From the NCBI GenBank assembly GCA_051531975.1, contig JAOPTT010000001.1, forward strand, positions 64,001 to 128,000: a DNA stretch of 64,000 bases. The letters are read 5' to 3'. Below the pieces are notes generated by a model. That model was not told the DNA's origin and ran no database searches. It worked only from the letters and a program-made list of their open reading frames with translations. Shown piece after piece: positions 11,651 to 52,561 of this stretch. The stretch comes from Spirochaetaceae bacterium (GTDB lineage Bacteria; Spirochaetota; Spirochaetia; DSM-2461). The translations under genes and the position numbers were made by a program. Each line of letters starts with the position of its first letter. The first letter of the stretch is position 1.

Positions 11651-11653
11651 ATT

Positions 11654-24545: not shown

Positions 24546-24652
24546 AAATTCCCTTAAAAAAAAGTATTTTTGATTAATCTATTATATACCATTTTATTGG
24601 CTTTATATAATAAAATAAAGTATAATATACAAAAATATAGAGGTGTATACAT

Positions 24653-25309
24653 ATGGAAAGTTTCATTATTAATAATTATATAAATTTAATCTGGGACTAT
24701 CATCAGCTTTATAACAAACCTGAAAAAGCTGACTGTATTTTTACCCTAGGAAGTAATGATCAACGTATTGCAGAGTATGCTTCAAATCTTTATCTAGATG
24801 GTTTTGCTCCATATCTAATATTCTCTGGAGGAATTGCTCATAGTGGAGATCTGTTATCAACAGGTTGGGATAAAAGTGAAGCTGAAATATTTGCTGACGT
24901 AGCTATTAATATGGGAGTTCCAAAAGATAAAATAATCATAGAAAAGCAAGCAAAAAATACAGGAGAAAATGTTCTGTTTACAGAAAAGATTTTAAAAGAA
25001 AAAAACATTAAATTTGATAAAATTATCGCAGTTCAAAAACCGTATATGGAAAGAAGAACATACGCGACTATTAAAGTTCATTGGCCACATAAAAATGTAA
25101 TAGTAACTTCTCCTAATATAAGTCTCGAAGAGTACCCAACTTCCAATATTAAAAAAGGAGACGTAATTAATATTATGGTTGGGGATCTTCAAAGGATAAT
25201 GGATTATCCGGCTTTGGGTTATCAAATAAAGCAGGAAGTTCCGGATAACGTAAAACATGCTTATAAAAAACTAGTTGAATTTGGTTTTGATAAGCACCTA
25301 ATACATTAA
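24653..25309 (+). CDS. YdcF/DUF218-family protein
   Basis: [25 protein letters not shown] motifs. Confidence 0.88.
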
Positions 25310-27144
25310 ACTGTTTGAAACTCATTAACCTCGTCATTAATTTCTCTACTTACAACTTCAACTCGATCTGTTATCTCTTTTAATCCAGACATAGCATCTG
25401 TTATCTCTCTAAATCCAATATTTACTTCTGAAATTGAACATGTAACAGAGTTAGATATATCTGAAACATTTGATATTAAGGAATTTATCGACATTGCACT
25501 ACTGTTCATAGATTCTGATTTATCCTGAACTGTTGATGATATATTTTCCAATCTTTCCATGGTTTTTAATATTTGATCACCATCGATATTAAGTTTCGAA
25601 GTACTATGTGAAACTTTATTAAGTTCTTCAGAAATTACTTTTATTCTCTCATTTATTTTTAAAAATGCCTCTCTTGTATTTTGACCAGCTGATGAGGCAT
25701 TTTCAAATTTAGTAATTATATATTTCAAATTCGAACTAATATCCTTACTATTCTGCGTTGATGCAACAGCAAGTTTTCTTATTTCATCTGCAACTACTGC
25801 AAATCCCTTTCCCGCATCACCTGCGTGAGCGGCTTCAATTGCAGCATTCATAGATAATAAATTAGTCTGATCTGAAATATTCTGAATTATCTCAGTCATA
25901 CTGTTTATCTCATTTACTGATGAGTTTATATCATCAATTATATCGTTTGTCTCTGAAAGTTTTTCATCACCTTCTAAGACAGTACGTTCAAGTAATTTTA
26001 GAATATCCTTATTATGATTAGTCATTAAGGATATCTCAGAAATGGAGCTAATCATATTTGATATGGAGTCCCCGGACTCTTTAACCATTGTTATCTGTTT
26101 AAAAATGTACTCATTTAATTCACTTGAGAACTCAGAAATCTCTACTGAATCCTGTTTCGATTGATTTATATGGTTATCTAACATAGAAATTTTACTATCT
26201 ATGGAATTTATATTTGCTGATATTTCTACTGCCGCTGCTGAAGTTTCTGTTGTTGTAGCTACTAACTCTTCTTTAACTTCTTCGTTAATTCTAGAAGAAT
26301 TTTTTATTTTATTTAACGAGCTGCTTAACCATGATTGGAATGTACTCATTTTATCACTAAGTAATCCAATCTCATCACTGGATTTAACATGAATATTATG
26401 GATAAGATTACCTGTAGCCATCACTGATAGGCTACTCTCCAGTTTTTTTATAGATTTTGTAATTTTAGAAGCACTTGTTATAGAAACAATTACTGAAATA
26501 AGTAGTGTCGATAACATTATTCCCATAGTAATAAATAGTCCTATTCTTTTAAAATAGGCAGCATAATTATCAATAATAATATATTGATCATGAATAGCTC
26601 TTTCCGAGGATTCAAGAGTTAGGATTACAACTCCCAGTTGTTTTTTTATTGTATTATTTAACCCTGATAGCTCATTAAAATATGGTAATAATTTTGTTTT
26701 TGACCTGTTTATATCCTGGATTGCAAATGATGAATCTAAACTATCAATTGTATTAAATAAAGCGTTTATTGATGTATATAATTTATCTTCCGCTTTACTC
26801 TGAAGTAACTCTAGATCAACTATTGTATCTAAAGCAACTTTTACATCTAAACTAAGGTTAGGAAGTGATTTGAAATCTTTAACTCTAAAGATAGAAGTTT
26901 TTTTAAGGTTAACAATATCTTTTAGTTCCTTGGATTGTTTTAAAATAGGAGTTCTATCTGTTAGGAATTTAGTTAATTCGATTATTTCCATTTTCATTAA
27001 AGAGCTTATTGTTTCAAGTTCTTTTTTTTCGTTTTCAATTTTAGTTATTCTGAGTTGAAAACCAATATATGAACCCATTGATATGATCATAGCGGTTAAA
27101 ATTGAAAAAATTAGGGTCAGTAATTTTGCCTTAATTTTCATCAT
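25306..27144 (-). CDS. Methyl-accepting chemotaxis protein
   Basis: Two TM helices, HAMP (DEIG.L), signalling hairpin [34 protein letters not shown]. Confidence 0.95.
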
Positions 27145-27595
27145 TTACTCTTATTTTAAACACCAATTTTTTAACCATAGATTTTTGATTATATAATAGT
27201 GCTGGAGTATGCAACTCTCCTGGCATTACTAATACAAAGTAACCATTTTTCAGATGGAAATTATATCCTTCAGATAATTTAAAAAACTCAATATCATTAT
27301 CTTTGTTATATTCCTCTTTGATCTCCTGGTTATTAAAAGGTAAAACTCTAAATAGTTCATCACCTTCAACTAAGAGTTGTATATCAATATAGTTTTTATG
27401 GGATTCATATACGCAGTCGATACTATCTTTGGTTTCATACTCAAATAACATGACAAATACTTTATCACCATCAATCTCATATTTCCCAGGTTTTAATTTG
27501 TTAAAATCCATGTCTTTCATATAATTAAGTGCAATATCAAGGTTATTAGAAAGCCCTAAGTATTGATCAGTATTTTCTATCTTGTCATATATCAT
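27131..27595 (-). CDS. YhcH/YjgK/YiaL (NanQ-like) family protein
   Basis: GKYEIDG, ESH..YIDIQ..V.G.E, PGELH.P motifs; follows the nanA-like gene. Confidence 0.9.
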
Positions 27596-27605
27596 AATAT
27601 CTCCT

Positions 27606-27648
27606 AAATAAAACCTCTGCCCATCTGTGGAGGATTCTAGGCAGAGGT
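27606..27648 (-). terminator. Terminator-like or stabilising hairpin between the nanA-like and yhcH-like genes
   Basis: Minus strand ACCTCTGCC-N18-GGCAGAGGT-TTTATTT. Confidence 0.6.
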
Positions 27649-27655
27649 AAAAAAT

Positions 27656-28582
27656 TTAAATAACGTCTAAAAAGTCTATTCCTGTTATGTTATATTCTTT
27701 TTTAAGAGCTCTAAACTCTTCTTTCATTACTTCTTCTTCCTGAAGTGTATAGTTCTTAAAAGGTCTTCTACAGTATCCAGCATCTACACCCATCCAAGCT
27801 AATGCACGTTTCATAGTTCCTACATAGTTTTTTTGAACAGCATGCATAATTATTGCATTGGCAAATTTTTGTTTCTCTTTTGCAGTTGGTAGATCGTTAT
27901 TATTCATAGCGTTATATATATCAATAAATACTTCTGGCATTAAGTTGTAAAATGAACCAATTAGACCATCTGCTCCAAATGCCATTCCTGACATTGACAT
28001 CTCATCACTACCTGAATAGATTAAAAAATCATCTCCAAGGTCCTTTTTTAATCTCATGATATCAAAGTGAGTTGAAGCCGTAAATTTCAGACCTTTAACA
28101 CCTTCAATCTCTGCAAATCTCTTAACCTGCTCATAACTTTGTAAACCAGCAAGCATTATGTTATATACGATCATTGGTAAAGATGTAGACTCTGTAATAT
28201 CTTTATAATAGTTAAATACATCATCTGCATTAAATCTCCAATAAAACGGAGGCACAGAGGAAATTGCATCTGCACCTTTCTCTTCAGCATGTTTAGCAAG
28301 ATCAATAGAAATTTTTGTTCCAATAGCACCTACGTGTACAATTATTGGAATTCTTCCTGCAGCCTGATCAATAACAACTTCAACAACAGTTTTTCTCTCT
28401 TCCGGAGTCATTAAAAAACCTTCACCAGTACTACCTGTTAGGTATAAACCATCAACTTTTTTACTAATTAAATGCTCAACAACAGCTCGCATTCTCTTTT
28501 CATCAAAGTTCTCGTTTTCATCAAACGTTGTAATTAACGCTGGGATAACACCTTTAATATCCTTAATCTCAAAATTAGCCAT
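27656..28582 (-). CDS. nanA: N-acetylneuraminate lyase-like aldolase (DHDPS/NAL family)
   Basis: GSTGE, IVYN, Schiff-base KFT, GSDEM and IGSFYN (NAL-type rather than DapA-type); yhcH neighbour. Start ATG 28582. Confidence 0.78.
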   Translation of the reverse strand: MANFEIKDIKGVIPALITTFDENENFDEKRMRAVVEHLISKKVDGLYLTGSTGEGFLMTPEERKTVVEVVIDQAAGRIPIIVHVGAIGTKISIDLAKHAEEKGADAISSVPPFYWRFNADDVFNYYKDITESTSLPMIVYNIMLAGLQSYEQVKRFAEIEGVKGLKFTASTHFDIMRLKKDLGDDFLIYSGSDEMSMSGMAFGADGLIGSFYNLMPEVFIDIYNAMNNNDLPTAKEKQKFANAIIMHAVQKNYVGTMKRALAWMGVDAGYCRRPFKNYTLQEEEVMKEEFRALKKEYNITGIDFLDVI

Positions 28583-28596
28583 ATATTCCTCTCTTC

Positions 28597-29598
28597 TTAT
28601 TTTATAAAATGACAAGATGCAAAATGTTCTATTCCATCTGTGCCATAATTTTTTAGTTTTGGTACTACTGTTTTGCAAATATCTTTGCATTCAGGACATC
28701 TAGGATGAAATGGGCAACCTGATGGTGGATTAACTGGACTTGGGACATCCCCTTCCAGAATTATTCTTTTAGTTTTTTTATTCAGGTCTGCTACTGGGAT
28801 TGCCGATAAAAGTGCTCTTGTATATGGGTGCAAAGTATTTTTATATAGCTCTTCACTCTCGGTTAATTCAACAATTTTACCAAGATACATAACTGCAACT
28901 CTGTCACTTATATACTCAACAACACTTAGGTCATGGGTAATAAACAGATAGGTTAAATTACGTTCATCCTTTAACTTTTTGAGTAGCTTAAGAACTTGAG
29001 CCTGAATTGATACATCTAAAGCACTTACTGCTTCATCGCAAATTATAACTTCAGGATTAATACTAAGTGCTCTAGCAATTCCAATTCTTTGTCTCTGACC
29101 ACCGGAAAATTCATGGGGATAACGGTCCATATATTCAGGTCTTAAGTTAACAGCTTCTAAAAGATCACCTATAATTTTTCTTCTCTCTTCTCTGGTTTTA
29201 ACACCATACTTTTTTAATGGATCAGATAGAGATCCAAAGACAGTAAACGCAGGATTCAGTGATGAATGAGGATCCTGAAATACTATTTGTAACTTCTTTC
29301 TATATGGATCCATCTCTTTATGGTTTAGAGTACGAAGGTTAACCTCTGTATCACTGTTTTTATAGATAATATCGCCACCAGTGGACTCAATTAATTGAAG
29401 AATAGATTTACCAAGTGTTGTTTTTCCACAACCACTCTCACCTACAATTCCTAATGTTTCACCTTTATATATATCAATATCAATACCATCTACAGCTTTG
29501 ACATGACCTGTAATTTTTTTGAATACACCTGTTCGGATCGGAAAATGGGTTTTCATACCTCGAAGTTTTAAAATAACCTCTCTCTTCTCTTTAGTCAT
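28597..29598 (-). CDS. Opp/Dpp-type ABC ATP-binding protein (OppF-like)
   Basis: GESGCGKT, FSGGQRQR, DEAVSALD, GCPFHPRC. Start ATG 29598. Confidence 0.95.
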   Translation of the reverse strand: MTKEKREVILKLRGMKTHFPIRTGVFKKITGHVKAVDGIDIDIYKGETLGIVGESGCGKTTLGKSILQLIESTGGDIIYKNSDTEVNLRTLNHKEMDPYRKKLQIVFQDPHSSLNPAFTVFGSLSDPLKKYGVKTREERRKIIGDLLEAVNLRPEYMDRYPHEFSGGQRQRIGIARALSINPEVIICDEAVSALDVSIQAQVLKLLKKLKDERNLTYLFITHDLSVVEYISDRVAVMYLGKIVELTESEELYKNTLHPYTRALLSAIPVADLNKKTKRIILEGDVPSPVNPPSGCPFHPRCPECKDICKTVVPKLKNYGTDGIEHFASCHFIK

Positions 29599-30595
29599 TT
29601 TTAGTTGCCTCCATATAATTCCAGCACATAACCTTGTGACTTTCTGAAATATCAACATTTTTAGGAATGTTAAAGCATGTTTCAGTCGCAAAATCGCATC
29701 TTGGACTAAACTGACAACCTTTTGGTCTATTTAACGGGTCAGGTGTAGAGCCTTTAATGGCTTCAAGTTCCTGATTTTTCCCTAGTCCTAATACAGGAAT
29801 TGATGTTAAAAGAGCTTTAGTATATGGGTGTGTAGGTCTATTAAGAATATCTTCTACAGTTCCACTCTCTACAATATTACCCATATACATAACTGCTACG
29901 TCGTCTGCTAACTCTGTAACAACACCCATGTCGTGGGTTATCAACATAATTGCGGTGTTATAGTCCTTCTTTAACTTCTCCATAAGCTCAAAAATTTGTG
30001 CCTGAATAGTGACATCCAAAGCAGTTGTAGGTTCATCGGCTATTAAAACCTGGGGATTACAAGACATTGCCATTGCGATCATAGCTCTCTGTCTCATTCC
30101 TCCTGAAAATTGGTGAGGATACTCTTTTGCCCTTAGTTCAGGAGAAGGTATTCCCATTGACTTAAGTAGTTCAACAGCTTTAAATCCTGCTTCTTTTTTT
30201 GATAATTCAGAATGATAGATAATATTTTCAGCTATCTGGTCTCCAACTTTAAATACTGGATTAAGTGCAGTCATAGGGTCTTGGAAAATCATTGCAATTT
30301 CCCCTCCGCGAATTGATCGCATCTTTGAACCATTTTGTTCCAATTCGTCAATTCTTAGAGCACCACCATCTCTATGGTATATGATCTCTCCCTCTTCAAT
30401 TCTAGAGAGTTTAGGTAGCAGCCCCATAATTGATGCAGCAGTAACACTTTTACCACATCCACTCTCACCAACTATGCAGAGAGTTTTTCCCTTTCTTACT
30501 TTAAAAGAGACTCCATTTAGAGCTTTATTACATCTTTTGTTAGTATAGAAGAATGTTTTTAAGTTATTAACTTCTATTATTGTATCGTTATTCAT
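29591..30595 (-). CDS. Opp/Dpp-type ABC ATP-binding protein (OppD-like)
   Basis: GESGCGKS, FSGGMRQR, DEPTTALD. Confidence 0.95.
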   Translation of the reverse strand: MNNDTIIEVNNLKTFFYTNKRCNKALNGVSFKVRKGKTLCIVGESGCGKSVTAASIMGLLPKLSRIEEGEIIYHRDGGALRIDELEQNGSKMRSIRGGEIAMIFQDPMTALNPVFKVGDQIAENIIYHSELSKKEAGFKAVELLKSMGIPSPELRAKEYPHQFSGGMRQRAMIAMAMSCNPQVLIADEPTTALDVTIQAQIFELMEKLKKDYNTAIMLITHDMGVVTELADDVAVMYMGNIVESGTVEDILNRPTHPYTKALLTSIPVLGLGKNQELEAIKGSTPDPLNRPKGCQFSPRCDFATETCFNIPKNVDISESHKVMCWNYMEATKND

Positions 30596-30605
30596 TAATA
30601 TCCCC

Positions 30606-31535
30606 CTATCCCTGTTGTGATGGATCTGTAGAATCTCTTAGTCCATCTCCAATAAAGTTAACACTTAGTACAAAAAGGGATATAACTATTCCTACTGGTA
30701 GCCATAACCACCAACTATTCTGAAGTATTCTTAATTCCTGTGCAGAGTTTAGGATATTACCCCAAGTTGCAATATTCATTGGAACACCTAGACCTAAAAA
30801 GCTTAGAGCAGCTTCCTGAAGAATAAACATAGCAGTACTAAGTGTTATATTTACCATAATTGGTCCTAAAGCATTAGGTAGTATATGTTTATAACATATT
30901 GTAAAAGTATTTAGACCAAATGCATTTAAAGCCTGTACATACTCCTCTTCTCTTAATGACAACATCTTAGCTCTAGACATCCTGTACATAGGAGCCCAAC
31001 CAGTAAGAACAAATATTACAATCAGATTCATTAAACTCTGACCTAATATTGAAACTAATAGAAGAACAAGTATTATTTGTGGAAATGACATAAATATTTC
31101 TGATAGTCTCAAAAATAGACCATCAATTAGCCCACCCTTATATCCTGCATAACAACCAATAGTTACACCTATTAATGCTGCTCCTAATGCTGATCCCAAA
31201 CCAACTAATATAGAAACACGACCACCATAAATTATTCTTGAATAAATATCTCGACCAACCCTATCGGTACCTAAAAAATGGTCAGCTGATGGAGGCCTAA
31301 GTGCACTTTTTAAATTAATCGCCAATGGATCATGTGTTGATATTAGCGGAGCAAATATTGTACATAACATTATTATTAAAAAGATTATTATTCCCGATAC
31401 TGCGAGTTTATTATTTAACATCTTTCTTAATTGTCGATTCATACTACTTTTTTTTAGTAGACCTGCTTCTTCCTGAGCTCTCAACTTATCGAAACTCTTA
31501 TGTAATTTTCTGTTTTTTTGCTTAAATATACTCAT
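30606..31535 (-). CDS. Opp/Dpp-type ABC permease (OppC-like)
   Basis: HFLGTD..GRD, HILPN, LSFLGLG, NFIGDGLRD. Confidence 0.95.
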   Translation of the reverse strand: MSIFKQKNRKLHKSFDKLRAQEEAGLLKKSSMNRQLRKMLNNKLAVSGIIIFLIIMLCTIFAPLISTHDPLAINLKSALRPPSADHFLGTDRVGRDIYSRIIYGGRVSILVGLGSALGAALIGVTIGCYAGYKGGLIDGLFLRLSEIFMSFPQIILVLLLVSILGQSLMNLIVIFVLTGWAPMYRMSRAKMLSLREEEYVQALNAFGLNTFTICYKHILPNALGPIMVNITLSTAMFILQEAALSFLGLGVPMNIATWGNILNSAQELRILQNSWWLWLPVGIVISLFVLSVNFIGDGLRDSTDPSQQG

Positions 31536-31543
31536 AAGGCCCC

Positions 31544-32503
31544 CTACTTTAATTTAACTCTTGGATCTAAAAGAGCTGTAAATAGATCTACTAAAAAACT
31601 TGCGAGAAGAACTGCAAATACAGAAAATAATGCAATCATCATTACTAATGGATAATTTTGACCTCTTACAGCAACAATAAATTCGTTACCTATTCCAGGC
31701 CACTGAAATATCTGTTCGATTACAACTGCTCCACCAATTAGTGTTGGTAGTCTAAATCCAACTAAAACTATTACAGGAGTCAATGCAACTCTAAAACCAT
31801 GAACAAGGTTTACTCTCCACGCTGGAAGACCTTTACTTCTGGCAGTTTTGATATATTCTTTATTTAATGAATCCAGCATACTGGATCTTGAATAACGCAT
31901 TACACCTGCTGTCAAAGTAGACGCTAGTACTAATGCTGGCATAACTAGATGTGGTAATCGGTCTAAAAAGGTATTGTAATGAGGCAATATTCGACCTCCT
32001 ACAGGTAACCATTCTAGGTTTAATGCAAATATAAGAATTGCGACAAGTCCAAAGAAAAACTGTGGTATAGATACACCTAACATACCTACAATAGTTAATG
32101 TATTATCTGCTATGGAACCTTTATTTATAGCACTTATACAACCTAGAATACTTCCAAATATGGTTGAAAGAATCAGAGATACAAAAGCTAACTCTAACGT
32201 TGCAGGTAGTCTATCAAAAACTATATTCTTAATTGGAACACCACTAGATATACTGTATCCAAAATCACCTTTAAGGATACCTTTTCCCCACTTAGCATAA
32301 CGTATTAAAAATGGATCATTTAAGCCAAGAGATTCTCTTAATGCATCAAGTTTTTCCGGTGATAACTCTGCAGCTGCTTCTGGATCTATCAAAAATGATA
32401 CTGCATCCCCAGGCATCAGGTCTAATCCTGTATAGATTAAGAAACTGATAATAATTAGCATAGGAATTAGAATTAAAATTCTTCTAATTGCATAGGATAA
32501 CAT
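31544..32503 (-). CDS. Opp/Dpp-type ABC permease (OppB-like)
   Basis: MPGD, GDFG.S, YIKTARSKGL, IFQWPGIG, LDPRV. Confidence 0.95.
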   Translation of the reverse strand: MLSYAIRRILILIPMLIIISFLIYTGLDLMPGDAVSFLIDPEAAAELSPEKLDALRESLGLNDPFLIRYAKWGKGILKGDFGYSISSGVPIKNIVFDRLPATLELAFVSLILSTIFGSILGCISAINKGSIADNTLTIVGMLGVSIPQFFFGLVAILIFALNLEWLPVGGRILPHYNTFLDRLPHLVMPALVLASTLTAGVMRYSRSSMLDSLNKEYIKTARSKGLPAWRVNLVHGFRVALTPVIVLVGFRLPTLIGGAVVIEQIFQWPGIGNEFIVAVRGQNYPLVMMIALFSVFAVLLASFLVDLFTALLDPRVKLK

Positions 32504-32533
32504 AACTTTAAACTCCTCTTAATTGGATATAAC

Positions 32534-32557
32534 CCCTGAAGTTTTTACACTTCAGGG
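32534..32557 (-). other. Stem-loop between the SBP and permease genes
   Basis: CCCTGAAGT-N6-ACTTCAGGG. Confidence 0.75.
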
Positions 32558-32578
32558 AACTTAATTACTAAAAACTGA

Positions 32579-34249: not shown

Positions 34250-34280
34250 AACATCTCCTTAAATTTAACTGAAATCAAAA

Positions 34281-34348
34281 TGTATCCGAATGTATACACA
34301 ATGTTTTCTTGTCTGGCTTTATTATTACATACATTTGTATACAGTCAA
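34281..34348. promoter_or_regulatory. Divergent promoter with two TGTATACA palindromes, candidate GntR/FCD operators
   Basis: TGTATACA at 34291-34298 and 34336-34343, each with a degenerate partner 10 bp away. Minus strand TTGACT-N16-AATAAT, with the second palindrome overlapping the -35 end and spacer. Confidence 0.65.
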
Positions 34349-34430
34349 GTCATTTCTTGCCAAATCTTATATTTAAATATACAATAACCTTAAATACTTA
34401 ATAAAACAGACTAAATATGAAGGAAGATAT

Positions 34431-36113: not shown

Positions 36114-37177
36114 TAACATCTAAAACTAGAGTAATGGATACTCTTAACCACAAAGAAACTGATAGAACTCCCCTTATGTATCGGGATGTACCCGAAGTTA
36201 GACAGAGATTAAAAAAAGACCTAAATGTAACAACAGATGATGAGTTATATAAACTATTTGGAATAGATTTCCGATGGGTTGCTCCTGAATATATTGGTCC
36301 AGAATTAAACATATCAGAAACAGAGAAGATAGATCACTGGGGAATCGAGTGGCAATATACAAAATTTAGTGATAGTGCCGGATACTGGAATGAAAAATCA
36401 TTTCCTATGGAAAAAATAGATACAGTCATAGGTGCAGCTTCCTGGCCTATCCCGGATATTAAATCATGGAACTATTCAAACTTAAGCAGAGATTGTGATC
36501 TGTATAAAGACTATGCAATTATGACTGCGCCGGGTTTCAGCTCTCCAGGAATCCTACAATTCCCAATTCAATCTCTTCTTGGAACAGAGAAAAGCCTAAT
36601 GGATCTATATATAAATCCTGAATTTTACAAAGCTCTTATAAGCCGTGTATTAGAGTTTCAGATTCCCTTTATTGATAAGATGATGGAATCTGCAGACGGA
36701 AAGATAGATCTTTTTCGATTAGGTGATGACTTTGGAACACAGGAAGGCCTATTAATGGGATTAGACCAATGGAAAGAATTCTTTCAGCCAGCACTAAAAA
36801 AAATGGCTGATAAAGCTAAATGTTATGGGGCTAAATATTATCAACACTCCTGTGGAGCTATCCGGGAACTAATCCCATCATTTATCGAAACAGGTGTAGA
36901 TGTTATCGACCCGGTTCAGGTAAAAGCAAACGGAATGATTCCAAAGGAATTAAAAAAAGAATTTGGTAATAAAATATGTTTTTCAGGTGGTGTTGATGAG
37001 CAGGATCTCCTACCCCATGGAAGTGAAAAAGATGTTAGAGAAGCTGTTTGGAAGTTACTTGATGATATGAGTGGTAATGGAGGATTTATACTAGGGCCAA
37101 CCCACAATTTCCAGGATGATATTCCTACAAAAAATATTGTTGCCATGTATGAAGCAGTCCACAACTGGAAAGGATAA
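36110..37177 (+). CDS. URO-D/MtaA-CmuA superfamily protein of unknown function
   Basis: MxSKxRV N-terminus, DxWG, GDDFGTQ, HSCG, GGVD.Q..L, GGFILGPTH; ATGA overlap with the sulfatase. Confidence 0.85.
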   Translation: MITSKTRVMDTLNHKETDRTPLMYRDVPEVRQRLKKDLNVTTDDELYKLFGIDFRWVAPEYIGPELNISETEKIDHWGIEWQYTKFSDSAGYWNEKSFPMEKIDTVIGAASWPIPDIKSWNYSNLSRDCDLYKDYAIMTAPGFSSPGILQFPIQSLLGTEKSLMDLYINPEFYKALISRVLEFQIPFIDKMMESADGKIDLFRLGDDFGTQEGLLMGLDQWKEFFQPALKKMADKAKCYGAKYYQHSCGAIRELIPSFIETGVDVIDPVQVKANGMIPKELKKEFGNKICFSGGVDEQDLLPHGSEKDVREAVWKLLDDMSGNGGFILGPTHNFQDDIPTKNIVAMYEAVHNWKG

Positions 37178-37210
37178 ATAGTTGGAGGAGTATTGTCCCT
37201 CCAGTTATTT
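37176..37210. terminator. Bidirectional terminator between the convergent URO-D genes
   Basis: AAATAGTTGGAGG-N9-CCTCCAGTTATTT. Confidence 0.7.
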
Positions 37211-37211
37211 A

Positions 37212-38342
37212 TTACTTTATAGTTTTAAGCATCTTATTAAATTGTTCTAATGACATAGTTGGAGGTATAGAGTGATCAGTGTGACAAATCCAGCCTCCAT
37301 CTTTAAACATCTCTTTTCGTGTTGTTAATTCCTGCTGGAGTTGTTCACAATCCCCATCCAGAATATGAGCATCAATATTTCCATAAAATGCCAGTCTATT
37401 TTGATATTTATCTTTTAACTGCCTAATATCCAATCCTGCAGAGGCCTGTAGAGGATTCATAACCTTAACTCCACAATCGATAAAATCATCAAACATTATC
37501 TCAGCATTTCCACATGAGTGCATCCAGAAATCAATATCGTTTTCTTTAAGAAAAGTACCAAGTTCTTTAACCATATCTTTATATACAGATGCCCACATGG
37601 TTGGAGACATTAAAGGTCCGTTACTTCCACCTAAGTCATCAACCATAAAATATCCATCAGGTTTCATTCCTTCAGAAATAGACTTTTTTAAAACATCAAT
37701 TGTAAGATCCACATGAACTCTACCCATATCCCTCACCCATTCTGGTTCAAGGGCAACATCCATTAATAAGTTAGAGAAATCTCGATGTCTCCATGTAGCC
37801 TCCCATGGACCATAATTTTTGAATAGAATATACCTGCCATTGTTCTCCATAATATCAAACTTAATTTTTGCTTCTTTCCATGATGGATAATCATCAAAAT
37901 GTTCAAAATAGTTCTGATCATCAATTCTAGAAGATTCAGATGGATCTTCATTTAGTTTCCATCTGTGTTTTGTAGATTCCCAAGTCTCTATATCTTTAGT
38001 TTTAACAGATACGTAGTGAATTGAACCTGACTTCTTCCATGGTTTTTCTGCTGTATATCCATATCTATCCTCATAAATATAATAATCGTCTTTATGGGAT
38101 AATATTTTTTGTTCATACCTTGGAGAACAATCAAGATACATAACAGCGATATCAAAATCAAAATATTCATCAACGGCCTGGCTTTTATTATCATTTAATG
38201 ATGGAGGATATATAGTTATATTCTGTGGGAATCCCTGTTCCTTCCAAACCTCTAAAGTATCTGTCCAGAAATCCTCATGTACAGGTATTCTATCTGGTTT
38301 CTCCCAATTGATTGCCGCTTTTACTCTCTCTTTTGAAGTCAT
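37212..38342 (-). CDS. URO-D/MtaA-CmuA superfamily protein of unknown function
   Basis: MTSKERV…PDRIP, DDLG, HSCG, GNID, GGWICHTDHSIP. Confidence 0.85.
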   Translation of the reverse strand: MTSKERVKAAINWEKPDRIPVHEDFWTDTLEVWKEQGFPQNITIYPPSLNDNKSQAVDEYFDFDIAVMYLDCSPRYEQKILSHKDDYYIYEDRYGYTAEKPWKKSGSIHYVSVKTKDIETWESTKHRWKLNEDPSESSRIDDQNYFEHFDDYPSWKEAKIKFDIMENNGRYILFKNYGPWEATWRHRDFSNLLMDVALEPEWVRDMGRVHVDLTIDVLKKSISEGMKPDGYFMVDDLGGSNGPLMSPTMWASVYKDMVKELGTFLKENDIDFWMHSCGNAEIMFDDFIDCGVKVMNPLQASAGLDIRQLKDKYQNRLAFYGNIDAHILDGDCEQLQQELTTRKEMFKDGGWICHTDHSIPPTMSLEQFNKMLKTIK

Positions 38343-38489
38343 GATCTTCTCCTGATAATTAGTGTGAATACTTTAATTATCTCATATCATTATCAGAATG
38401 TATTTGTTGTTTATTACCATAAACGCCTATTTTTTATCTTTAAAGAGTTTTTAAACTGTATTATAATATTTTTATTACCAGGAAGGTTT

Positions 38490-39263
38490 ATGGGATCATT
38501 TGCCACAATAATCAGTAAATATGGAAGTTTTAAAAAAAACTACAGATCAAATTTAATAAAATGGGACTACTGGGATCTGTTATTTGTACATTCAGGTGAG
38601 TTAACTATTTCTTTTAATAATATTTTAATAGTTGTAAAGCAGGGTCAATCAATTTTGATACCTCCTGGAACATATTTCACAATTACAAGTAGAAATTTTG
38701 AGACCACAGCGTCTGTTCAATATTTTAATTCTGATAATTCAGAAGTAAATAAAACACTGTGCAGATTTTCGAAACCATTATTACATAAAGATAAAGATGG
38801 TTTAGCTCTAGAATCCCACATTAAGGAATTAATTGAAGTATACGATAGTAATAAACATATATTAAAAAGACAGGAACTTCTTCTTGAATTAGTTTTAGAA
38901 AAGATATTAGCGGTAAAATATGGCAGAAAAGAATCAAATAGCCCCTGGTCTGATATTTCAATAAGATATAAAAACAGACTGTATAACCCACCATCTATTA
39001 CAGAAATTGCATCCTGGGCTGGTTATTCACCAAGCAGATTTAGGTTTATATTTAAAAGAGATACAGGTTTAAAACCAGCGGTATTCTTTTTTAACATAAA
39101 AATACAAAGTTCAGCCAAAATGTTAATAGAAACAGTTCTACCAATTAAAGAGATAAGTCAAAAACATGGATATAACGAAGTAGCTCATTTTAATCGGGCA
39201 TTTACTAGATTTTATAATATTAGCCCAGGTAAATATAGAAAAAAGAATACATTTTGCGGCTAA
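38490..39263 (+). CDS. AraC-family regulator (cupin sensor plus HTH)
   Basis: C-terminal GY…HFNRAF….SPG.YRK. Start moved to ATG 38490 (GGAAGG RBS). Confidence 0.88.
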   Translation: MGSFATIISKYGSFKKNYRSNLIKWDYWDLLFVHSGELTISFNNILIVVKQGQSILIPPGTYFTITSRNFETTASVQYFNSDNSEVNKTLCRFSKPLLHKDKDGLALESHIKELIEVYDSNKHILKRQELLLELVLEKILAVKYGRKESNSPWSDISIRYKNRLYNPPSITEIASWAGYSPSRFRFIFKRDTGLKPAVFFFNIKIQSSAKMLIETVLPIKEISQKHGYNEVAHFNRAFTRFYNISPGKYRKKNTFCG

Positions 39264-39274
39264 CTACATTTTTA

Positions 39275-39304
39275 TGTATAATACTGTATAATATTGTAGA
39301 ATAT
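39275..39304 (+). promoter_or_regulatory. Three tandem 10-bp repeats upstream of gntR copy 1
   Basis: TGTATAATAC-TGTATAATAT-TGTAGAATAT. Confidence 0.6.
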
Positions 39305-39366
39305 ACCTTCCCAATATAATAATTTTATTACTATAGTAAATAATACAGAGACAAGAGGTGGCAAAT

Positions 39367-40044
39367 ATGGCTAAAGAGAAAAAAGAGAAATCATCATATG
39401 AACTTTTAAAAGATTTAATTCTAAATTTCCATATTAAACCTAATGAGAGAATGACTGAAGTTTTTCTAGCTGAAAAAATGAATATGTCTCGAATCCCAGT
39501 CCGGGAGGCTATTCAACAACTTGTCCATGAGGGATTTATTGAACGTACCGGTAAAACTGGATATCAAATAAAAGAGTATAATGAACAGGATATTATTGAT
39601 TTATATAACTATAGAGAAGCTATGGATGGAATGTTAACTAGACTATTTACCCAGAGAGTTGATGAATCACAAATATACTTTCTTGGTATGAATGTTGAAT
39701 CAATGGGAAATAAACTTGAGGATTTTGACCATACTACGTTTTCAAAAATTGATCATGATTTTCATAGAATAATTGCCAGAGGTGCAAGAAACCGATACAT
39801 GGAGCACCAACATGAGATAATTCTTGAAAAAGTTTTGTACGTCGCTGATCTAGTTTTTAAAGTAGCAGAAGAGAAAGAAATAGAGTTATTAACTAAAGAT
39901 AGTTACCAAGAAACATATAAGCAGCACTGTGAAATATTTAAATACATAGAAGAGAAAAATCCTGATATGGCAGAAAAGACCGCTCGGGAGTCTGTTCAGA
40001 TAGGACTTAAAAAAGCACTGTTAGTCCTATCCAAACGTGGTTGA
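39367..40044 (+). CDS. GntR-family regulator with FCD domain (copy 1)
   Basis: SRIPVREA, D..FH..I…A.N, QH.EI. ATG 39367 after GAGG. Confidence 0.92.
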   Translation: MAKEKKEKSSYELLKDLILNFHIKPNERMTEVFLAEKMNMSRIPVREAIQQLVHEGFIERTGKTGYQIKEYNEQDIIDLYNYREAMDGMLTRLFTQRVDESQIYFLGMNVESMGNKLEDFDHTTFSKIDHDFHRIIARGARNRYMEHQHEIILEKVLYVADLVFKVAEEKEIELLTKDSYQETYKQHCEIFKYIEEKNPDMAEKTARESVQIGLKKALLVLSKRG

Positions 40045-40088
40045 ATCAGATATAAAATACTGTAAATTACAAACATAATATTTTGATA

Positions 40089-42236
40089 TTACTTTATCAA
40101 GAATGTATAAGCACCATTCCAATTAGCAGGAGGTGGATTGTTTTTGAAATTGATGCATCTATCCAGGAATATTTGAGAAGCATAATCGAATGGAAGGATT
40201 TCAAGACATTCTCTAAATAGTTTAATTGAATCGTCCCAATTTTTAGAAAAATATTGGTCTAATGCGTTATTATATGTTTTTAGAATTTGCTGTTTACTTG
40301 TCTTTATATTTGTTTCATTTGAATTAAAAACTTCATATATGGTTTCAGGGTTGTCCTTACCTTTAACATTTACATAGTCTAATTTTCTCCAAAGTATTGA
40401 GCTATCTTCTTTAATAAGTGCCCAGGTGGCTGAGCTTATTATAATTTGAACATTATATTGCTTTGTTAAACTTTCCAAACGTGCTGCCAAATTTACAACA
40501 TCTCCTAAAACTGTAGAATCCATTCGTTCGTTAGATCCAACGGTCCCAATAATCACACGACCACTATGAATACCAATACCTGTTTTTATAGGAACAGCAC
40601 CATATTCAAGTCTTTTTTGATTATATTCGTGTAGACAATCTTGCATCTCAATAGCCGCATGAACAGCACAATTTGCCTCTTTTTCTGAACCATCCTCAGA
40701 GAGGTCGAAAAGAGCCATAATTGCATCACCAATAAATTTATCAATAAATCCTCTATTCTTATGAATTGGTCTGCTTAACCTCTCAAAATAGGCGTTTAGA
40801 AAATCTAATACATCTTTAGGTTTCATGTTTTCAGTAAAGTTTGTAAATGAACGAATATCTGAAAACAACACACTAATAAAAGCACTTTCTGCATTTCCAA
40901 GTTTTATACTCTCGATTCCTTTTTTTCCAATCCGTGCCATAAAGTTTGGAGGAACAAACTTCTGAAATGTTTCAGCATATATTTCAATTTTTGTATAAGC
41001 TTTAGAAAACCGAAGAGAAAGAAAAAATGATTGAAATAAAATAAATAGAAACGTACCTAAAGGAACTAAGCGAAATGGACTAATAGGTATTTGATAAATA
41101 AATAATATATCGTGAATAAAAGTAATAACAGGTAGTATTAATCCTAGTATTATAACAATAGCACCTTTCTCTTTTTTCATCGATGTCCCAATTAAAAGAA
41201 ACAGTATGTAAAAACATAATAAGGTAAAATATATTTGATAGAAAAAAGCAAACTTTGAATAAAAGTTAATAGTTGAAACCAGGGTTAATAATGCAAATAT
41301 TCCGCCAATAACTTTTACAGTTGGAAGGATACGGTTCCGGAGGAAAGGACGATAAAAAATTGAATCTACGAATGCTATCCATAGCGGTGGAATTAAATAT
41401 AGTGTTAGGTATTCAACCTTTCTAGCAATCTCCCAATTTAGCGTAGGATAAATAGATACTAAAAAATCTTCACCTTTAATCAATATTCTAAGGCAAATAA
41501 GCAGACAAATAAATCCAAAATATAGAGGGCTCTTGTCTTTTTTACGTAGAATATAAAGTCCAAAATGATAAAAAGCCATAATAATAATGCTACCAAAAAG
41601 TGTCATCTCGAAGGCGAGTTTTTGTCTCATGTTCTGTATTATTTGCCTTTCTTCTCCAAATTCGATATATGACCATGGGCCACCAAGCCTATGGTTATAG
41701 TTAGAAACATTCAGAGTTAGTAGTTTAATGTTTTGTGATAAATCAACAGATACGATATCAGAAGAGTGTTGTGGAACCATTAGTTTTTTTTCTTTTCCAA
41801 CAACACCACTTTGAGAAATTTTTTCCCGATCGATCCATAGTGTATAGGCAGAACTTTGCTCATCTAACTTTAGGGCATACCTTTTACTGGATTCTGGGAA
41901 AATAACCTTCAGTCTAAAGGTAGCATACCCATAACTTCCTAGTTTTTCTCCATTTATTTTATAGTTATTCCATTGTCCTGGTAAATTATAATAACCTTGA
42001 AGCATGGGTTTTGAAGTAGATTGTATCTCAAAGTCCATTGGCACTAATAATTGATCCCAATAGAACTTCCATTCTCCATTTAGTTTTACAACTCCATCAT
42101 TTATAAAATCCCAATCTGAAAGGTCGAGAACACCTTTTATGGCTATTGGCTGAGTTTTTTCTGAATATTGGTTTTGGCAGGAAAATAGAAACAGAAATAA
42201 TAAAAAAGCTATTAAATAAAATCGATGCTTCATCAC
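40089..42236 (-). CDS. Class III adenylate cyclase with 7TM-DISM-like sensor region
   Basis: GVLDL..WDF…LNGEW.FYW extracellular domain, seven hydrophobic helices, FSDIRSFT, DKFIGDAIMA, TVLGDVVNLAARLE. Confidence 0.9.
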   Translation of the reverse strand: MMKHRFYLIAFLLFLFLFSCQNQYSEKTQPIAIKGVLDLSDWDFINDGVVKLNGEWKFYWDQLLVPMDFEIQSTSKPMLQGYYNLPGQWNNYKINGEKLGSYGYATFRLKVIFPESSKRYALKLDEQSSAYTLWIDREKISQSGVVGKEKKLMVPQHSSDIVSVDLSQNIKLLTLNVSNYNHRLGGPWSYIEFGEERQIIQNMRQKLAFEMTLFGSIIIMAFYHFGLYILRKKDKSPLYFGFICLLICLRILIKGEDFLVSIYPTLNWEIARKVEYLTLYLIPPLWIAFVDSIFYRPFLRNRILPTVKVIGGIFALLTLVSTINFYSKFAFFYQIYFTLLCFYILFLLIGTSMKKEKGAIVIILGLILPVITFIHDILFIYQIPISPFRLVPLGTFLFILFQSFFLSLRFSKAYTKIEIYAETFQKFVPPNFMARIGKKGIESIKLGNAESAFISVLFSDIRSFTNFTENMKPKDVLDFLNAYFERLSRPIHKNRGFIDKFIGDAIMALFDLSEDGSEKEANCAVHAAIEMQDCLHEYNQKRLEYGAVPIKTGIGIHSGRVIIGTVGSNERMDSTVLGDVVNLAARLESLTKQYNVQIIISSATWALIKEDSSILWRKLDYVNVKGKDNPETIYEVFNSNETNIKTSKQQILKTYNNALDQYFSKNWDDSIKLFRECLEILPFDYASQIFLDRCINFKNNPPPANWNGAYTFLIK

Positions 42237-42467
42237 CCTATACTTTCTCCTCGATATTATATATCAGACTTCTCATACTAATATTGTAGCTTACTTTATA
42301 CCAAATACAAGTTTTAGGTTAAAATAAAGTAAAAACATACCCTCAATATAGATATCATCGAAGAAGTATCAGAATCCTGGAAAGCCATATCTATTGTCCT
42401 TTATTCCAGCCTTAATTTTCAATATTTCTTTATTAGTAACAGATACTCCTTTCTTTAAGAATACTAT

Positions 42468-42518
42468 TGTATACAGAATTATATTTTAATTGCTTTTTTG
42501 TCTCTTTAGGTATACACT
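42468..42518 (+). promoter_or_regulatory. Promoter of the gntR2-epimerase operon with TGTATACA boxes
   Basis: TTGCTT-N17-TACACT (42490-42518); TGTATACA at 42468-42475 and GGTATACA at 42509-42516 over the -10. Confidence 0.65.
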
Positions 42519-42547
42519 GTCCATAATTCCAGGAAAAAGGAGATATT

Positions 42548-43222
42548 ATGAACGGAGAAAAAAATAGAACATCATATGAATATCTCAAAGATTTGATTCT
42601 CGGGTTCCACATAAAACATGGGCAGAGGATAACTGAAGTATTTCTTTCAGAGAAAATGAACTTATCTAGAATTCCTGTAAGAGAAGCTATTCAGCAAATG
42701 GTATACGAAGGATTTATTGAACGTTCAGAAAAAAATGGATATCAGATTAAAGAGTATAACGAGCAGGATATAATAGACTTATATAACTATAGAGAAGCTA
42801 TGGATGGAATGTTAGTAAAATTGTTTACTGGGAGGGTTGATGAATCCCAACTCTACTTCCTAGAGATTAATGTGGAATCTATGTCTGAGATATTACAGGA
42901 TTTTGACAGAAAAGAGTTTTCAAAGATAGATTTAGAGTTTCATAGAATAATTGCAAGAGGTGCCCGGAACCAGTATATGGAGCATCAACATGAAATTATC
43001 TTAGAAAAAGTTTTATACGTTGCCGAGCTTATGTATAAGGTTGCAGAAGAGAAAAAGATCAACTTATTAGACATAAATAGTTATAAGAATACATACTTAC
43101 AACATAAAGCTATTCTGGAATCTATTAAAAAACGTGATCCTGAAAATGCCGAAAACTTTGCTCGAGAGTCTGTTAGAGAGGGGCTTAAAAAAAGCCTATT
43201 AATACTATCTAAACATCGTTAA
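42548..43222 (+). CDS. GntR-family regulator with FCD domain (copy 2)
   Basis: Close paralog of 39367-40044. Confidence 0.92.
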   Translation: MNGEKNRTSYEYLKDLILGFHIKHGQRITEVFLSEKMNLSRIPVREAIQQMVYEGFIERSEKNGYQIKEYNEQDIIDLYNYREAMDGMLVKLFTGRVDESQLYFLEINVESMSEILQDFDRKEFSKIDLEFHRIIARGARNQYMEHQHEIILEKVLYVAELMYKVAEEKKINLLDINSYKNTYLQHKAILESIKKRDPENAENFARESVREGLKKSLLILSKHR

Positions 43223-43244
43223 TAAATATAGGAGAAGGATATTT

Positions 43245-44414
43245 ATGGATACCAATACTATAAAAAAACTTAAAGAATTTTATAATAACGAACTACTTAA
43301 TAATGTAGTTCCATTTTGGCAAAATAATTCTGTAGACTGGGAATATGGCGGTTTTATGGATTTTCTAGATAGAGAGGGTAAAACACTATCAACTGATAAA
43401 GGTGGTTGGGTTCAAGGACGAGCAGTTTGGATATTTTCAAACCTATATAGGGATATAGAAAAGAGAGATGAATGGCTAAAAGTTGCAGAAAATGGTGTGA
43501 AGTTCATTAGAGAACATCTAATCAGAAAATCTGACGGAAGGGTTTACTTCGAAGTTACTAGAGAGGGTAAACCCCTGTTAATGAGACGTTACCTGTTTTC
43601 TGAACTATTTGCAGCTATGGGTTTAGCAGCATACTCTGAAATATCCGGGGACAGACAGGCTCTTGATGAAGCAAGAACTCTATACTCAACTATAAATAAT
43701 CTAATGGATAAAATGCCTTCAAAAATTGATGTAAATACAAGAAAGTTCAGAGGACATTCCATGACTATGATGTTAATAAACCTCTGTCAGGTTATGCGAG
43801 ATGCGGATATGGAAAGAGCATCAATTTATACAAAACAAATAGATATCCAGATAGATGAGCTTTTTAAATACTTGGTTAAACCTGAGCTAAAATGCCTTCT
43901 AGAAACCGTTGATGAAAATGGAGACCAAACTGAGGGTCCTGAAGGTCGATGTGTAAATCCGGGGCACGCTATTGAAACAGCATGGTTTATATTAGAGGAA
44001 GCAAAGTTACGTAACGATGATGAATTAATTAAGAAGACACTGCTAATTATAGACTGGTCTTTAGAGTTAGGTTGGGACAAAGAGTATGGAGGGATTTTTT
44101 CTTTTGTTGATATAGAAGGAAAACAACCAGCACAAGTTGAGTGGGATATGAAATACTGGTGGCCTCACTGCGAAACCATATATGCACTATTACTAGCCTA
44201 TGATCTGACTAAGGATAAAAAATACGAAGATTGGTTTAATAAAGTACATGATTATACCTGGGATAAATTTCCGGATAGAGAGCATGGTGAGTGGTTTGGA
44301 TATTTAAGACGGGATGGTTCTGTTCAAGTAGATCTGAAAGGAAATCACTTTAAAGGGCCTTTTCATATACCAAGGTTTTTAACAAAAGTTTCAACTTTAT
44401 TAGACAGTATGTAA
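43245..44414 (+). CDS. N-acylglucosamine 2-epimerase (AGE family, Bacteroides NanE-type)
   Basis: K..W.QGR, PGHAIE.AW, K.WWPH.E, GEWFGYL.RDG, KGPFHIPR. Confidence 0.88.
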   Translation: MDTNTIKKLKEFYNNELLNNVVPFWQNNSVDWEYGGFMDFLDREGKTLSTDKGGWVQGRAVWIFSNLYRDIEKRDEWLKVAENGVKFIREHLIRKSDGRVYFEVTREGKPLLMRRYLFSELFAAMGLAAYSEISGDRQALDEARTLYSTINNLMDKMPSKIDVNTRKFRGHSMTMMLINLCQVMRDADMERASIYTKQIDIQIDELFKYLVKPELKCLLETVDENGDQTEGPEGRCVNPGHAIETAWFILEEAKLRNDDELIKKTLLIIDWSLELGWDKEYGGIFSFVDIEGKQPAQVEWDMKYWWPHCETIYALLLAYDLTKDKKYEDWFNKVHDYTWDKFPDREHGEWFGYLRRDGSVQVDLKGNHFKGPFHIPRFLTKVSTLLDSM

Positions 44415-44417
44415 TAA

Positions 44418-44445
44418 AAATCCCGGATAGAAATCTGGGGTTTAT
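44418..44445 (+). terminator. Terminator-like hairpin after the epimerase
   Basis: CCCGGAT-AGAA-ATCTGGG followed by GTTTAT. Confidence 0.6.
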
Positions 44446-50326: not shown

Positions 50327-50329
50327 TAT

Positions 50330-50373
50330 AGTCTCCTCGTTCATTCTGTTATTACAGAATATACGAGGAGACT
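50330..50373 (-). promoter_or_regulatory. Long hairpin sequestering the RBS of the metallohydrolase gene
   Basis: Minus strand AGTCTCCTCGT…ACGAGGAGACT 11-bp stem, plus a 7-bp inner stem ATTCTGT/ACAGAAT; ATG 3 nt after the stem. Confidence 0.7.
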
Positions 50374-50468
50374 CAAAACCGTAAATTGTTAATAAACAAC
50401 AGATGTGCCATATACCTACAAATTAGAAGTAATTAGAAAAATTCAGATCATCATTTCTAAACAGATAT

Positions 50469-51284: not shown

Positions 51285-51299
51285 TTTATCTCCTTTATT

Positions 51300-52478: not shown

Positions 52479-52561
52479 ATGATTTCCTTTATCAACAATT
52501 GATATTAAATTTGTTTACGACAATTATAATATTGCACCCTAGGTTGGTATGTGAATTCAGT

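Follow-up and report, generated by a model that had tools for sequence, protein, structure and literature searches.

Sulfatases and UroD-superfamily proteins linked to a sialic acid locus in a marine spirochete: a candidate route for decorated sialic acids

Why would a bacterium tie sulfatases and relatives of corrinoid methyltransferases to its genes for sialic acid utilization? The question is raised by a 64,000-nucleotide (nt) stretch of spirochete DNA (genome G000, contig C1, positions 64001 to 128000; here called the window, whose positions we use unless another contig is named), in which sialic acid (nan) genes occur with two sulfatase genes (A and B) and two genes of the uroporphyrinogen decarboxylase (UroD) superfamily (URO-D1 and URO-D2). 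The genome (5.46 Mb, about 32% GC, 29 contigs) comes from a marine metagenome, and its closest public relatives are spirochete metagenome-assembled genomes (MAGs). Genes were identified with Pfam and NCBIfam profiles and compared across 38 genomes of the same family, while orthologs of sulfatase A were sought in 60 relatives; genomes, loci, and contigs are labeled G0xx, L0xx, and Cx. Because the genes are co-distributed, hold positions in the same operons, and have an operator-like sequence in common, we conclude that the link between the nan genes, the sulfatases, and the UroD proteins is real. Our leading reading, which we hold tentatively and rate a little short of an even chance, is a GntR-controlled sialic acid regulon in which the sulfatases and UroD proteins strip O-sulfate and O-methyl groups from decorated sialic acids or their fragments.

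The profiles agree with the first-pass annotation of this DNA for every gene that it named at 25306-44414, in content and in order. It had passed over four genes: a small AraC regulator, a sensor-cyclase fusion, and, outside that interval, a DUF218 gene (24653-25309, plus strand) and sulfatase B (9067-10539, minus strand). The core of the locus is a leftward operon with intergenic gaps of -14 to 75 nt, which encodes an N-acetylneuraminate lyase-like aldolase (NAL; 27656-28582, minus strand; PF00701, 251.6 bits) that starts at the ATG at 28582, with a ribosome-binding site. Among the matches listed to solved structures, the first 33 are all N-acetylneuraminate lyases (best E value, 1e-52), and the first dihydrodipicolinate synthase appears only at an E value of 6e-34, which places the protein closer to the lyases than to the synthases or to KDG aldolases. 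The protein keeps GSTGE, the tyrosine of IVYNI, the lysine of GLKFTAS, SDE, and GSFYN, all aligned to the lyase structure 4WOQ. We take their roles to be those in the Escherichia coli enzyme: Schiff-base lysine, catalytic tyrosine, carboxylate-binding GSTGE, and an Asp-Glu pair plus a serine for the glycerol tail. Next to NAL lies a gene of the YhcH/NanQ-type sialate anomerase family (27131-27595, minus strand; PF04074, 148 bits), which scores well above the subfamily cut-off (TIGR00022, 124.8 versus 45.5 bits). Its end overlaps by 14 nt the start of a gene for a methyl-accepting chemotaxis protein (MCP; 25306-27144, minus strand; Pfam MCPsignal/HAMP). Chemotaxis toward the substrate had been suggested on the strength of this MCP; the gene is indeed part of the G000 operon, but none of the nan loci examined in other genomes has one, and we grade the suggestion as weak. 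At the other end of the locus is an N-acylglucosamine 2-epimerase (AGE; 43245-44414, plus strand; PF07221, 173.8 bits), best matched by the AGE model (NF052547, 379.7 bits versus 90.3 for cellobiose 2-epimerase) and followed by a terminator-like hairpin at 44418-44443. The genome encodes one NAL and one AGE, both here, and by its gene content the locus is predicted to be the organism's single sialic acid utilization system.

Uptake would fall to an Opp/Dpp-type ABC importer, whose ATPases and permeases OppF, OppD, OppC, and OppB (28597-32503, minus strand; Pfam/NCBIfam) are 76 to 85% identical to their counterparts in the loci of G018, G010, G005, and G022. The accompanying family 5 solute-binding protein (SBP; 32579-34249, minus strand) has a signal peptide and is circularly permuted, as first annotated: by the coordinates of both Pfam and Protein Data Bank (PDB) matches, residues 43 to 257 correspond to the C-terminal half of canonical family 5 SBPs and residues 309 to 550 to the N-terminal half. 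Orthologs of this SBP, present in 8 of the 38 family genomes, are 68 to 73% identical in five genomes and 48% identical in G028. A sialic acid-linked ABC importer with an SBP of the peptide/oligopeptide family is also known as SatABCD (ST3) from Haemophilus ducreyi and bifidobacteria, whose binding protein is assigned to that family in a review (PMC10017367). However, SatA (5Z99) matches only residues 343 to 494 of the G000 protein (E value, 1.6e-9), in which the halves are swapped; given this weak, partial match and the permuted domain order, we do not regard the G000 SBP as a SatA ortholog. No version of the nan locus examined contains a glycosidase, which makes a free monosaccharide the likeliest cargo and disfavors the import of sialyl-oligosaccharides that had been considered in the initial annotation.

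Between the SBP gene and sulfatase A lies one divergent promoter region (34250-34430). As proposed earlier, it would serve the SBP operon leftward and sulfatase A with URO-D1 rightward, and between them stand two copies (34291 and 34336) of the palindrome TGTATACA, both overlapping the best promoter-like matches on both strands. Sulfatase A (34431-36113, plus strand; PF00884, 172.8 bits) is a leaderless Cys-type S1 sulfatase with the C/S-x-P-x-R motif in the form CMPAR; sulfatase B, an outlying member of the regulon in which the Pfam Sulfatase domain begins at residue 5, is likewise leaderless and Cys-type and has CSPAR. One anSME maturation enzyme is encoded in the genome (C4:194275; TIGR03942, 469 bits, above the cut-off). 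The stop codon of sulfatase A and the start codon of URO-D1 (36110-37177, plus strand; PF01208, 82.1 bits versus a cut-off of 23.9), an MtaA/CdmB-like protein, overlap as ATGA, so the coupling noted at first annotation is present in the sequence. URO-D2 (37212-38342, minus strand; PF01208, 62.3 bits versus 23.9) belongs to a different orthogroup and is divergent from the small AraC regulator (38364-39263, plus strand; Pfam). Then come two GntR/FCD regulators, GntR1 (39358-40044) and GntR2 (42548-43222), both on the plus strand, both with PF00392 and PF07729, and about 72 to 73% identical to each other. The locus regulators of other genomes are closer to GntR1 (66 to 72%) than to GntR2 (63 to 67%). 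Between the two GntR genes is the 7TMR-DISM sensor fused to an adenylate/guanylate cyclase (40089-42236, minus strand; Pfam), which was not seen in other versions of the nan locus examined and whose membership of the system is uncertain.

Do these genes answer to a common signal? The window contains six copies of the palindrome TGTATACA where 1.9 would be expected, a count that none of 100 shuffles reached; one copy is intragenic, and the other five fall in promoters of genes assigned to the system. Besides the pair in the divergent promoter, there is a site at 10615-10622, 76 nt upstream of the sulfatase B start codon; one at 24644-24651, between a promoter-like match (24597-24626) and the start codon of DUF218, which it immediately precedes; and one at 42468-42475, upstream of GntR2-AGE. 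The last bears on the view that the AGE promoter carries the same motif: the motif is shared, but AGE begins 22 nt after GntR2, and the site upstream of GntR2 is therefore not in a promoter of AGE's own. Presence of TGTATACA in front of DUF218 and sulfatase B indicates that these relocated genes are still tied to the system. The longer form TTGTATACAG, with at most one mismatch, is not enriched in the window (9 found versus 7.2 expected); the core TTGTATAC and a flanking GTCAAGT are conserved in the matching promoter of L009, with a variant in L025. We note that TGTATACA fits the t.GT..AC.a pattern that we take to be typical of FadR-type GntR operators. Across the genome there are 89 sites, 21 of them intergenic, and the other intergenic sites adjoin unrelated genes, the exceptions being an oxidoreductase gene on C3 and, on C14, a separate GntR regulon. 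No nagA or nagB gene, kinase, or sialidase appeared as a regulon member in this genome-wide map. Our promoter and terminator scan performed at chance overall (93 versus 98 and 12 versus 10, respectively) and served only to place single sites. We read the locus and its outlying genes as a probable GntR(FCD)-controlled regulon with a predicted operator.

The C3 gene encodes a GFO/IDH/MocA oxidoreductase (G000:C3:69308-70328; L067) with a TGTATACA site 22 nt upstream. This is presumably the family of the 2,7-anhydro-Neu5Ac (N-acetylneuraminic acid) oxidoreductases, and the gene may be a further member of the regulon.

The family comparison offers a built-in control. An orthologous nan locus (NAL identity of at least 65%) is found in six of the 38 genomes. 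In G010 and G005 it has a base form, in which DUF218, AGE, and GntR are transcribed leftward and divergently from SBP-OppBCDF-NAL(-YhcH), with neither sulfatase nor URO-D; from this we infer that the sulfatases and URO-D1 supplement a sialic acid locus that works without them. G018 and G028 have GntR-sulfatase A-URO-D1-AGE-DUF218, and in both, NAL is followed directly by a sulfatase B ortholog (55 to 60% identical). Of the 60 relatives searched, G018 and G028 alone have close orthologs of sulfatase A (72 to 76%), and URO-D1 and sulfatase B each have orthologs in three of the 38 family genomes (a fourth match to URO-D1, in G003, is a 37% paralog). All three accessory genes thus occur in the same three genomes, G000, G018, and G028, always in or beside the nan locus, which is the neighborhood conservation that the first-pass annotation had asked for. 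NAL, AGE, sulfatase A, and URO-D1 have diverged in step (72 to 76% identity between G000 and G018; 65 to 72% between G000 and G028). All three of the deepest branches of the locus (no root set) carry the sulfatase/URO-D1 insert, which would favor an ancestral module later lost in G010/G005 and G022. In G000 itself the operon is broken up: DUF218, with which the GntR-AGE-DUF218 operon of other genomes ends (Pfam; orthologs of 56 to 58% identity follow AGE in G028, G010, and G018), has been relocated, sulfatase B lies 17 kb off, and URO-D2/AraC, the duplicated GntR, and the cyclase have been inserted.

URO-D2 has a wider distribution. Its orthologs occur in 6 of the 38 genomes, all six of which encode NAL, and in four they adjoin nan genes. 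In G022, URO-D2 and its AraC partner stand beside the locus regulator; in G028, URO-D2 is found next to the cluster's opp genes, together with a GntR gene and an Fe-S protein; and G029 has an operon of GntR-URO-D-aldo/keto reductase-NAL-AGE with a different NAL/AGE pair (38 to 43% identity). The copies in G018 and G035 are on short contigs. From G022, G028, and G029 it follows that UroD-fold genes have become associated with nan genes repeatedly, both where sulfatases are present and where they are absent. The G029 arrangement represents a second operon type, GntR-URO-D-aldo/keto reductase-NAL-like-AGE (L065, 4428-9189), also found in G035 (L064).

Could the nan locus be an ordinary one for Neu5Ac, into whose vicinity unrelated sulfatase and URO-D genes have drifted? 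G000 is crowded enough to suggest it, with about 46 sulfatase genes (six in the window) and 18 URO-D matches, URO-D/AraC cassettes that recur at several loci (L057, L058, L053, and L062 have the same pairing), and an ancestral operon that has clearly been rearranged. Five of the 18 URO-D matches lie within 5 kb of a sulfatase, compared with 6.8% of the genome that is so close; this is an enrichment, but two of these five are URO-D1 and URO-D2 themselves. We nevertheless consider drift very improbable, given the exact co-distribution of three accessory genes in 3 of 38 genomes, their in-operon positions in two other genera, divergence parallel to that of NAL and AGE, and the common operator, which the relocated genes retain. 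Together with URO-D2 beside nan genes in four genomes, the co-occurrence, operon position, and operator sustain the functional link that had been postulated for this locus. A sulfatase about 50% identical that is present in all 11 genomes of genus g4 was ruled out of the system, with no nan genes within about 10 kb.

We propose the following route. The ABC importer with its permuted SBP would bring free sialic acid into the cytoplasm, where YhcH would equilibrate its anomers. NAL would then split it into pyruvate and N-acetylmannosamine (ManNAc), which AGE would convert to N-acetylglucosamine (GlcNAc), as in the Bacteroides-type route. Decorated sialic acids would lose their O-sulfate to sulfatases A and B, both cytoplasmic and Cys-type, and their O-methyl groups to the MtaA-like URO-D1 and URO-D2; these enzymes could work ahead of the lyase or, once it has acted, on the ManNAc/GlcNAc fragment. 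The methyl group would pass to the genome's single MtaC-like corrinoid protein, kept reduced by RACo. Echinoderms would be the natural source of the substrates: PMC6994554 describes sialic acids methylated at O-8 as abundant in starfish and sea cucumbers and reports O-8 sulfation from other echinoderms. Three elements of this route are inferences, namely its substrates (O-sulfated and O-methylated sialic acids), the sequence of its steps, and the reliance of URO-D1 and URO-D2 on a corrinoid; the substrate assignment draws on family resemblance and on the natural occurrence of such sugars.

What might the sulfatases cleave instead? The closest solved relative of sulfatase A is 7OZ8 (248 bits over the full length; the next is at 184 bits). 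This is BT1918, listed in a review table (PMC10154620) as the S1_46 GlcNAc-3-O-sulfatase of Bacteroides thetaiotaomicron and described there and in a bioRxiv preprint as an enzyme that has the N-acetyl group for a specificity determinant. The two proteins have the TDQQR and SDHG metal-site motifs in common. Sulfatase A differs in being Cys-type and leaderless, in an extra C-terminal tail of about 75 residues, in lacking a like residue for one sugar-contacting position (numbering uncertain), and in its setting among nan genes rather than in a heparin/heparan sulfate context. Because the residue numbering of BT1918 could not be reconciled, we claim only overall similarity. The relationship nonetheless suggests that the sulfatases could act on sulfated N-acetylhexosamines (GlcNAc-3-sulfate or -6-sulfate and ManNAc sulfates) from glycosaminoglycans or mucin-type glycans, with sialic acid imported undecorated; they would then belong to the nan regulon because both routes end in the GlcNAc pool. 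Sulfatase A stands in the AGE operon and not in the lyase operon, which suits this alternative, as does the window's character of a sulfated-glycan island: its six leaderless sulfatases stand among ABC sugar importers, AraC-type regulators, two GH88 genes, and a PIG-L deacetylase. The SBP, too, gives no sign of a specificity shift between loci with and without sulfatases. Against it, sulfatase B directly follows NAL in two genomes, the three accessory genes are found only where the nan locus is, the conserved locus has no second transporter for a hexosamine sulfate, and URO-D1 and URO-D2 would be left unexplained. On balance we think this alternative unlikely.

The case that our leading reading makes for demethylation turns on the URO-D proteins. 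The AlphaFold2 model of URO-D1 (pLDDT 95.1) has MtaA as its best fold match, with a template modeling (TM) score of 0.71 to 0.75, and true uroporphyrinogen decarboxylases fit it less well (TM score of about 0.65). The profile of the URO-D1 family matches MtaA and CdmB, the latter described in PMC13222342 as methyltransferase I (MT I) of a corrinoid chloromethane system. An H-S-C-G motif aligned with H-I-C-G of MtaA is invariant in URO-D1 (URO-D2 has H-S-C), and in 41 aligned orthologs H246-x-C248, H332, D206/D207, and R25/D26 are all invariant. We take H-x-C to supply zinc ligands, as in MtaA, and predict a metal site in both URO-D1 and URO-D2. The URO-D1 ortholog family is tight (more than 120 clusters at 53 to 79% identity, marine Bacteroidota among them; Puteibacter and Prolixibacteraceae are examples), and an ESM Atlas search gave only generic URO-D clusters. 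In G000 the single MtaC-like corrinoid protein, on contig C5 (79448-80104), adjoins a full-length MtaA-like enzyme, CobW, a PocR-AraC regulator, RACo, and CobUTS. RACo is present in 19 of the 22 family genomes with at least three URO-D matches and in 1 of the 16 with at most one; since the genomes are kin and the corrinoid hub itself adds one URO-D match, we read this trend as a pattern and not as a statistic.

Expansions of URO-D paralogs reach 18 matches in G000 and up to 38 in G028, and occur also in G026 and G022. The paralogs are typically divergent from a small AraC regulator and often sit in glycan utilization loci. Some are followed directly by Fe-S proteins, either Fer4_16 or FMN_bind plus Fer4 (L051, 4936-5622, in G028; L053, 5395-6585, in G003), which hints at a redox partner.

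The sulfate part of our proposal could also be right while the URO-D proteins do something else, either as corrinoid-free zinc enzymes of the UroD fold (acting on an intermediate derived from sialic acid, for example by decarboxylation, isomerization, or transfer to a thiol) or as partners of the sulfatases. Such roles would be in keeping with the absence of a corrinoid protein from the locus, with scores far below the MtaA/CmuA cut-offs, with a Pfam URO-D match that covers only the C-terminal half, and with the translational coupling of URO-D1 to sulfatase A; some paralogs, moreover, precede Fe-S/FMN proteins and not corrinoid proteins, and the superfamily is described in PMC10418091 as also holding decarboxylases, MetE, and epoxide:CoM transferase. 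This alternative, which we likewise judge improbable, is opposed by the identity of the closest folds and profile matches (the corrinoid methyltransferases MtaA and CdmB), by the invariant H-x-C, by paralog expansions that track RACo across the family, and by the entry of URO-D2 into sulfatase-free nan loci (G022 and G029).

Several observations weigh against the removal of sulfate and methyl groups from sialic acids as we propose it. On the methyl side, both UroD proteins fall far below the curated MtaA and CmuA cut-offs (URO-D1, 58.4 versus 244 and 54.3 versus 235.4 bits; URO-D2, 32.5 and 29.6 bits), and there is no corrinoid protein in or near the nan locus, the only one in G000 being on another contig. 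Three genomes have many URO-D matches and no RACo match (they are only 71 to 87% complete), and the RACo match of G018, which has URO-D1, carries an in-frame stop, as does that of G005. We know of no corrinoid O-demethylase that acts on sugar methyl ethers. The substrates named for these enzymes in two sources (PMC10418091, PMC13222342) are aryl methyl ethers, halomethanes, thiols, and amines. On the sulfate side, no characterized enzyme is more than remotely similar to sulfatase B or to the additional sulfatases of G028, and with some 46 sulfatase genes in the genome and six in the window, adjacency in G000 alone carries little weight. The G000 SBP is equally close to those of G010, which lacks the sulfatases (72%), and of G018, which has them (72%), and therefore gives no sign that transporter specificity has shifted. 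The core enzymes themselves miss curated equivalog cut-offs: NAL (NF003164, 267.7 versus 281; TIGR00683, 231.7 versus 382), AGE (379.7 versus 600), and the anomerase (105.2 versus 160). The substrates of all the enzymes in the locus are predicted from sequence and context, and the chemotaxis link is specific to G000. Lastly, the synteny comes from one spirochete family only, and 401 Spirochaetota and 301 Verrucomicrobiota genomes gave no further orthologous locus.

The wider searches can be summarized briefly. A scan of genome contigs with sulfatase A found only two close loci, both in spirochete MAGs. With URO-D1, a metagenome scan returned only distant paralogs (27 to 43%), an even sample of the phylum (401 Spirochaetota genomes) had no ortholog outside G000, and the 301 Verrucomicrobiota genomes yielded one match of 37%; a scan of a plasmid collection gave nothing useful. 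In one MAG, homologs of URO-D1 and sulfatase A are nine accessions apart, which is only suggestive (other pairs came from different MAGs).

How does the locus compare with known systems? In Bacteroides-type sialic acid catabolism, a lyase (NanL) and an AGE-type epimerase (NanE-II) are followed by a GlcNAc kinase. The G000 locus is similar in combining a lyase with an AGE-family epimerase, without NanK or NanE, in a route ending in GlcNAc. It differs in uptake (an Opp/Dpp-type ABC importer with a permuted SBP in place of MFS/TonB transport), in having DUF218 as a core member, and in the two sulfatases and two UroD-superfamily proteins built into its operons and regulon.

With the three-component corrinoid systems, in which an MT I such as OdmB, VdmB, or CdmB works with a corrinoid protein, an MT II, and an activator, G000 has in common the UroD fold (MtaA being the closest structure and CdmB the closest profile match), a corrinoid protein with RACo, and many putatively substrate-specific paralogs that share few corrinoid proteins. 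Unlike in those systems, neither a corrinoid protein nor an MT II is encoded alongside these URO-D genes of G000, and the spirochete paralogs are paired with an AraC regulator or lie within sugar operons. To our knowledge, there is no precedent for an aliphatic sugar methyl ether as the substrate of a corrinoid methyltransferase.

A functional analogy can be drawn with NanS-type sialate O-acetylesterases, accessory enzymes that strip an O-substituent so that the core pathway can proceed; here the reactions would be sulfate ester hydrolysis and putative methyl transfer, by other protein families. Nan clusters often carry esterases for O-acetylated sialic acids, and the G022 locus has a GDSL esterase between AGE and NAL.

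A 2023 review (PMC10017367) states that reports of a microbial sulfatase acting on sulfated sialic acid are lacking. In the full-text literature, whose coverage leaves out most subscription journals, we came upon no account of URO-D genes within nan clusters, of the demethylation of sialates, or of such a combination of nan, sulfatase, and URO-D genes, and within that coverage the candidate pathway stands as undescribed, as first claimed. A larger claim, to which we assign a low probability, is that sialate O-sulfatases, the first from a microbe, are encoded in the locus together with a corrinoid-dependent O-demethylase for 8-O-methyl sialic acid, an aliphatic sugar methyl ether, and that the 18 to 38 URO-D paralogs of these marine spirochetes form a sugar demethylase toolkit that works with one corrinoid protein. 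If true, this toolkit would match, under anaerobic conditions, the oxidative route by which methylated sugars of algae and animals are demethylated. Should sugars prove to be demethylated by the URO-D proteins, the chemistry of corrinoid methyltransferases would reach past aryl ethers, halomethanes, amines, and thiols, and the large paralog families of anaerobic glycan degraders would be explained. The locus supplies named, clonable candidates (two sulfatases and two UroD-fold proteins) together with the same nan locus without sulfatases and URO-D1 as a comparative control, and the enzymes could become tools for the analysis of sialic acid modifications.

Some further features of the window and of related genomes deserve mention. 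Just upstream of sulfatase B, on the same strand, are an EamA transporter gene and a gene for a PIG-L-family de-N-acetylase (10630-12535); the latter could bear on the processing of N-acetyl sugars. Beyond sulfatase B lies a gene for a 1,998-residue hybrid sensor kinase (2912-8908) with two SBP_bac_3 domains and PAS, GAF, HisKA, receiver, and Hpt domains. At the other end of the window, an island at 48809-63414 contains two GH88 genes, four leaderless sulfatases, an SBP_bac_1 protein, an AraC-type regulator, and a DUF3604 protein; it probably serves unsaturated uronate-containing sulfated oligosaccharides.

The sole BNR_2 (GH33-like) gene of G000 (C20:31783-33288; L055, 3783-5288), a possible sialidase gene, lies in a TetR-GH1-MFS_2 unit within a sulfatase-rich island. 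It is grouped with the MFS transporter and the GH1 gene and not with the surrounding sulfatases. Signs of locus decay were seen in two genomes: G001, of the same genus as G000, retains only an AGE fragment with an in-frame TGA (G001:C1:600020-600388), and the AGE gene of G022 is in two pieces (L062, 6713-7878).

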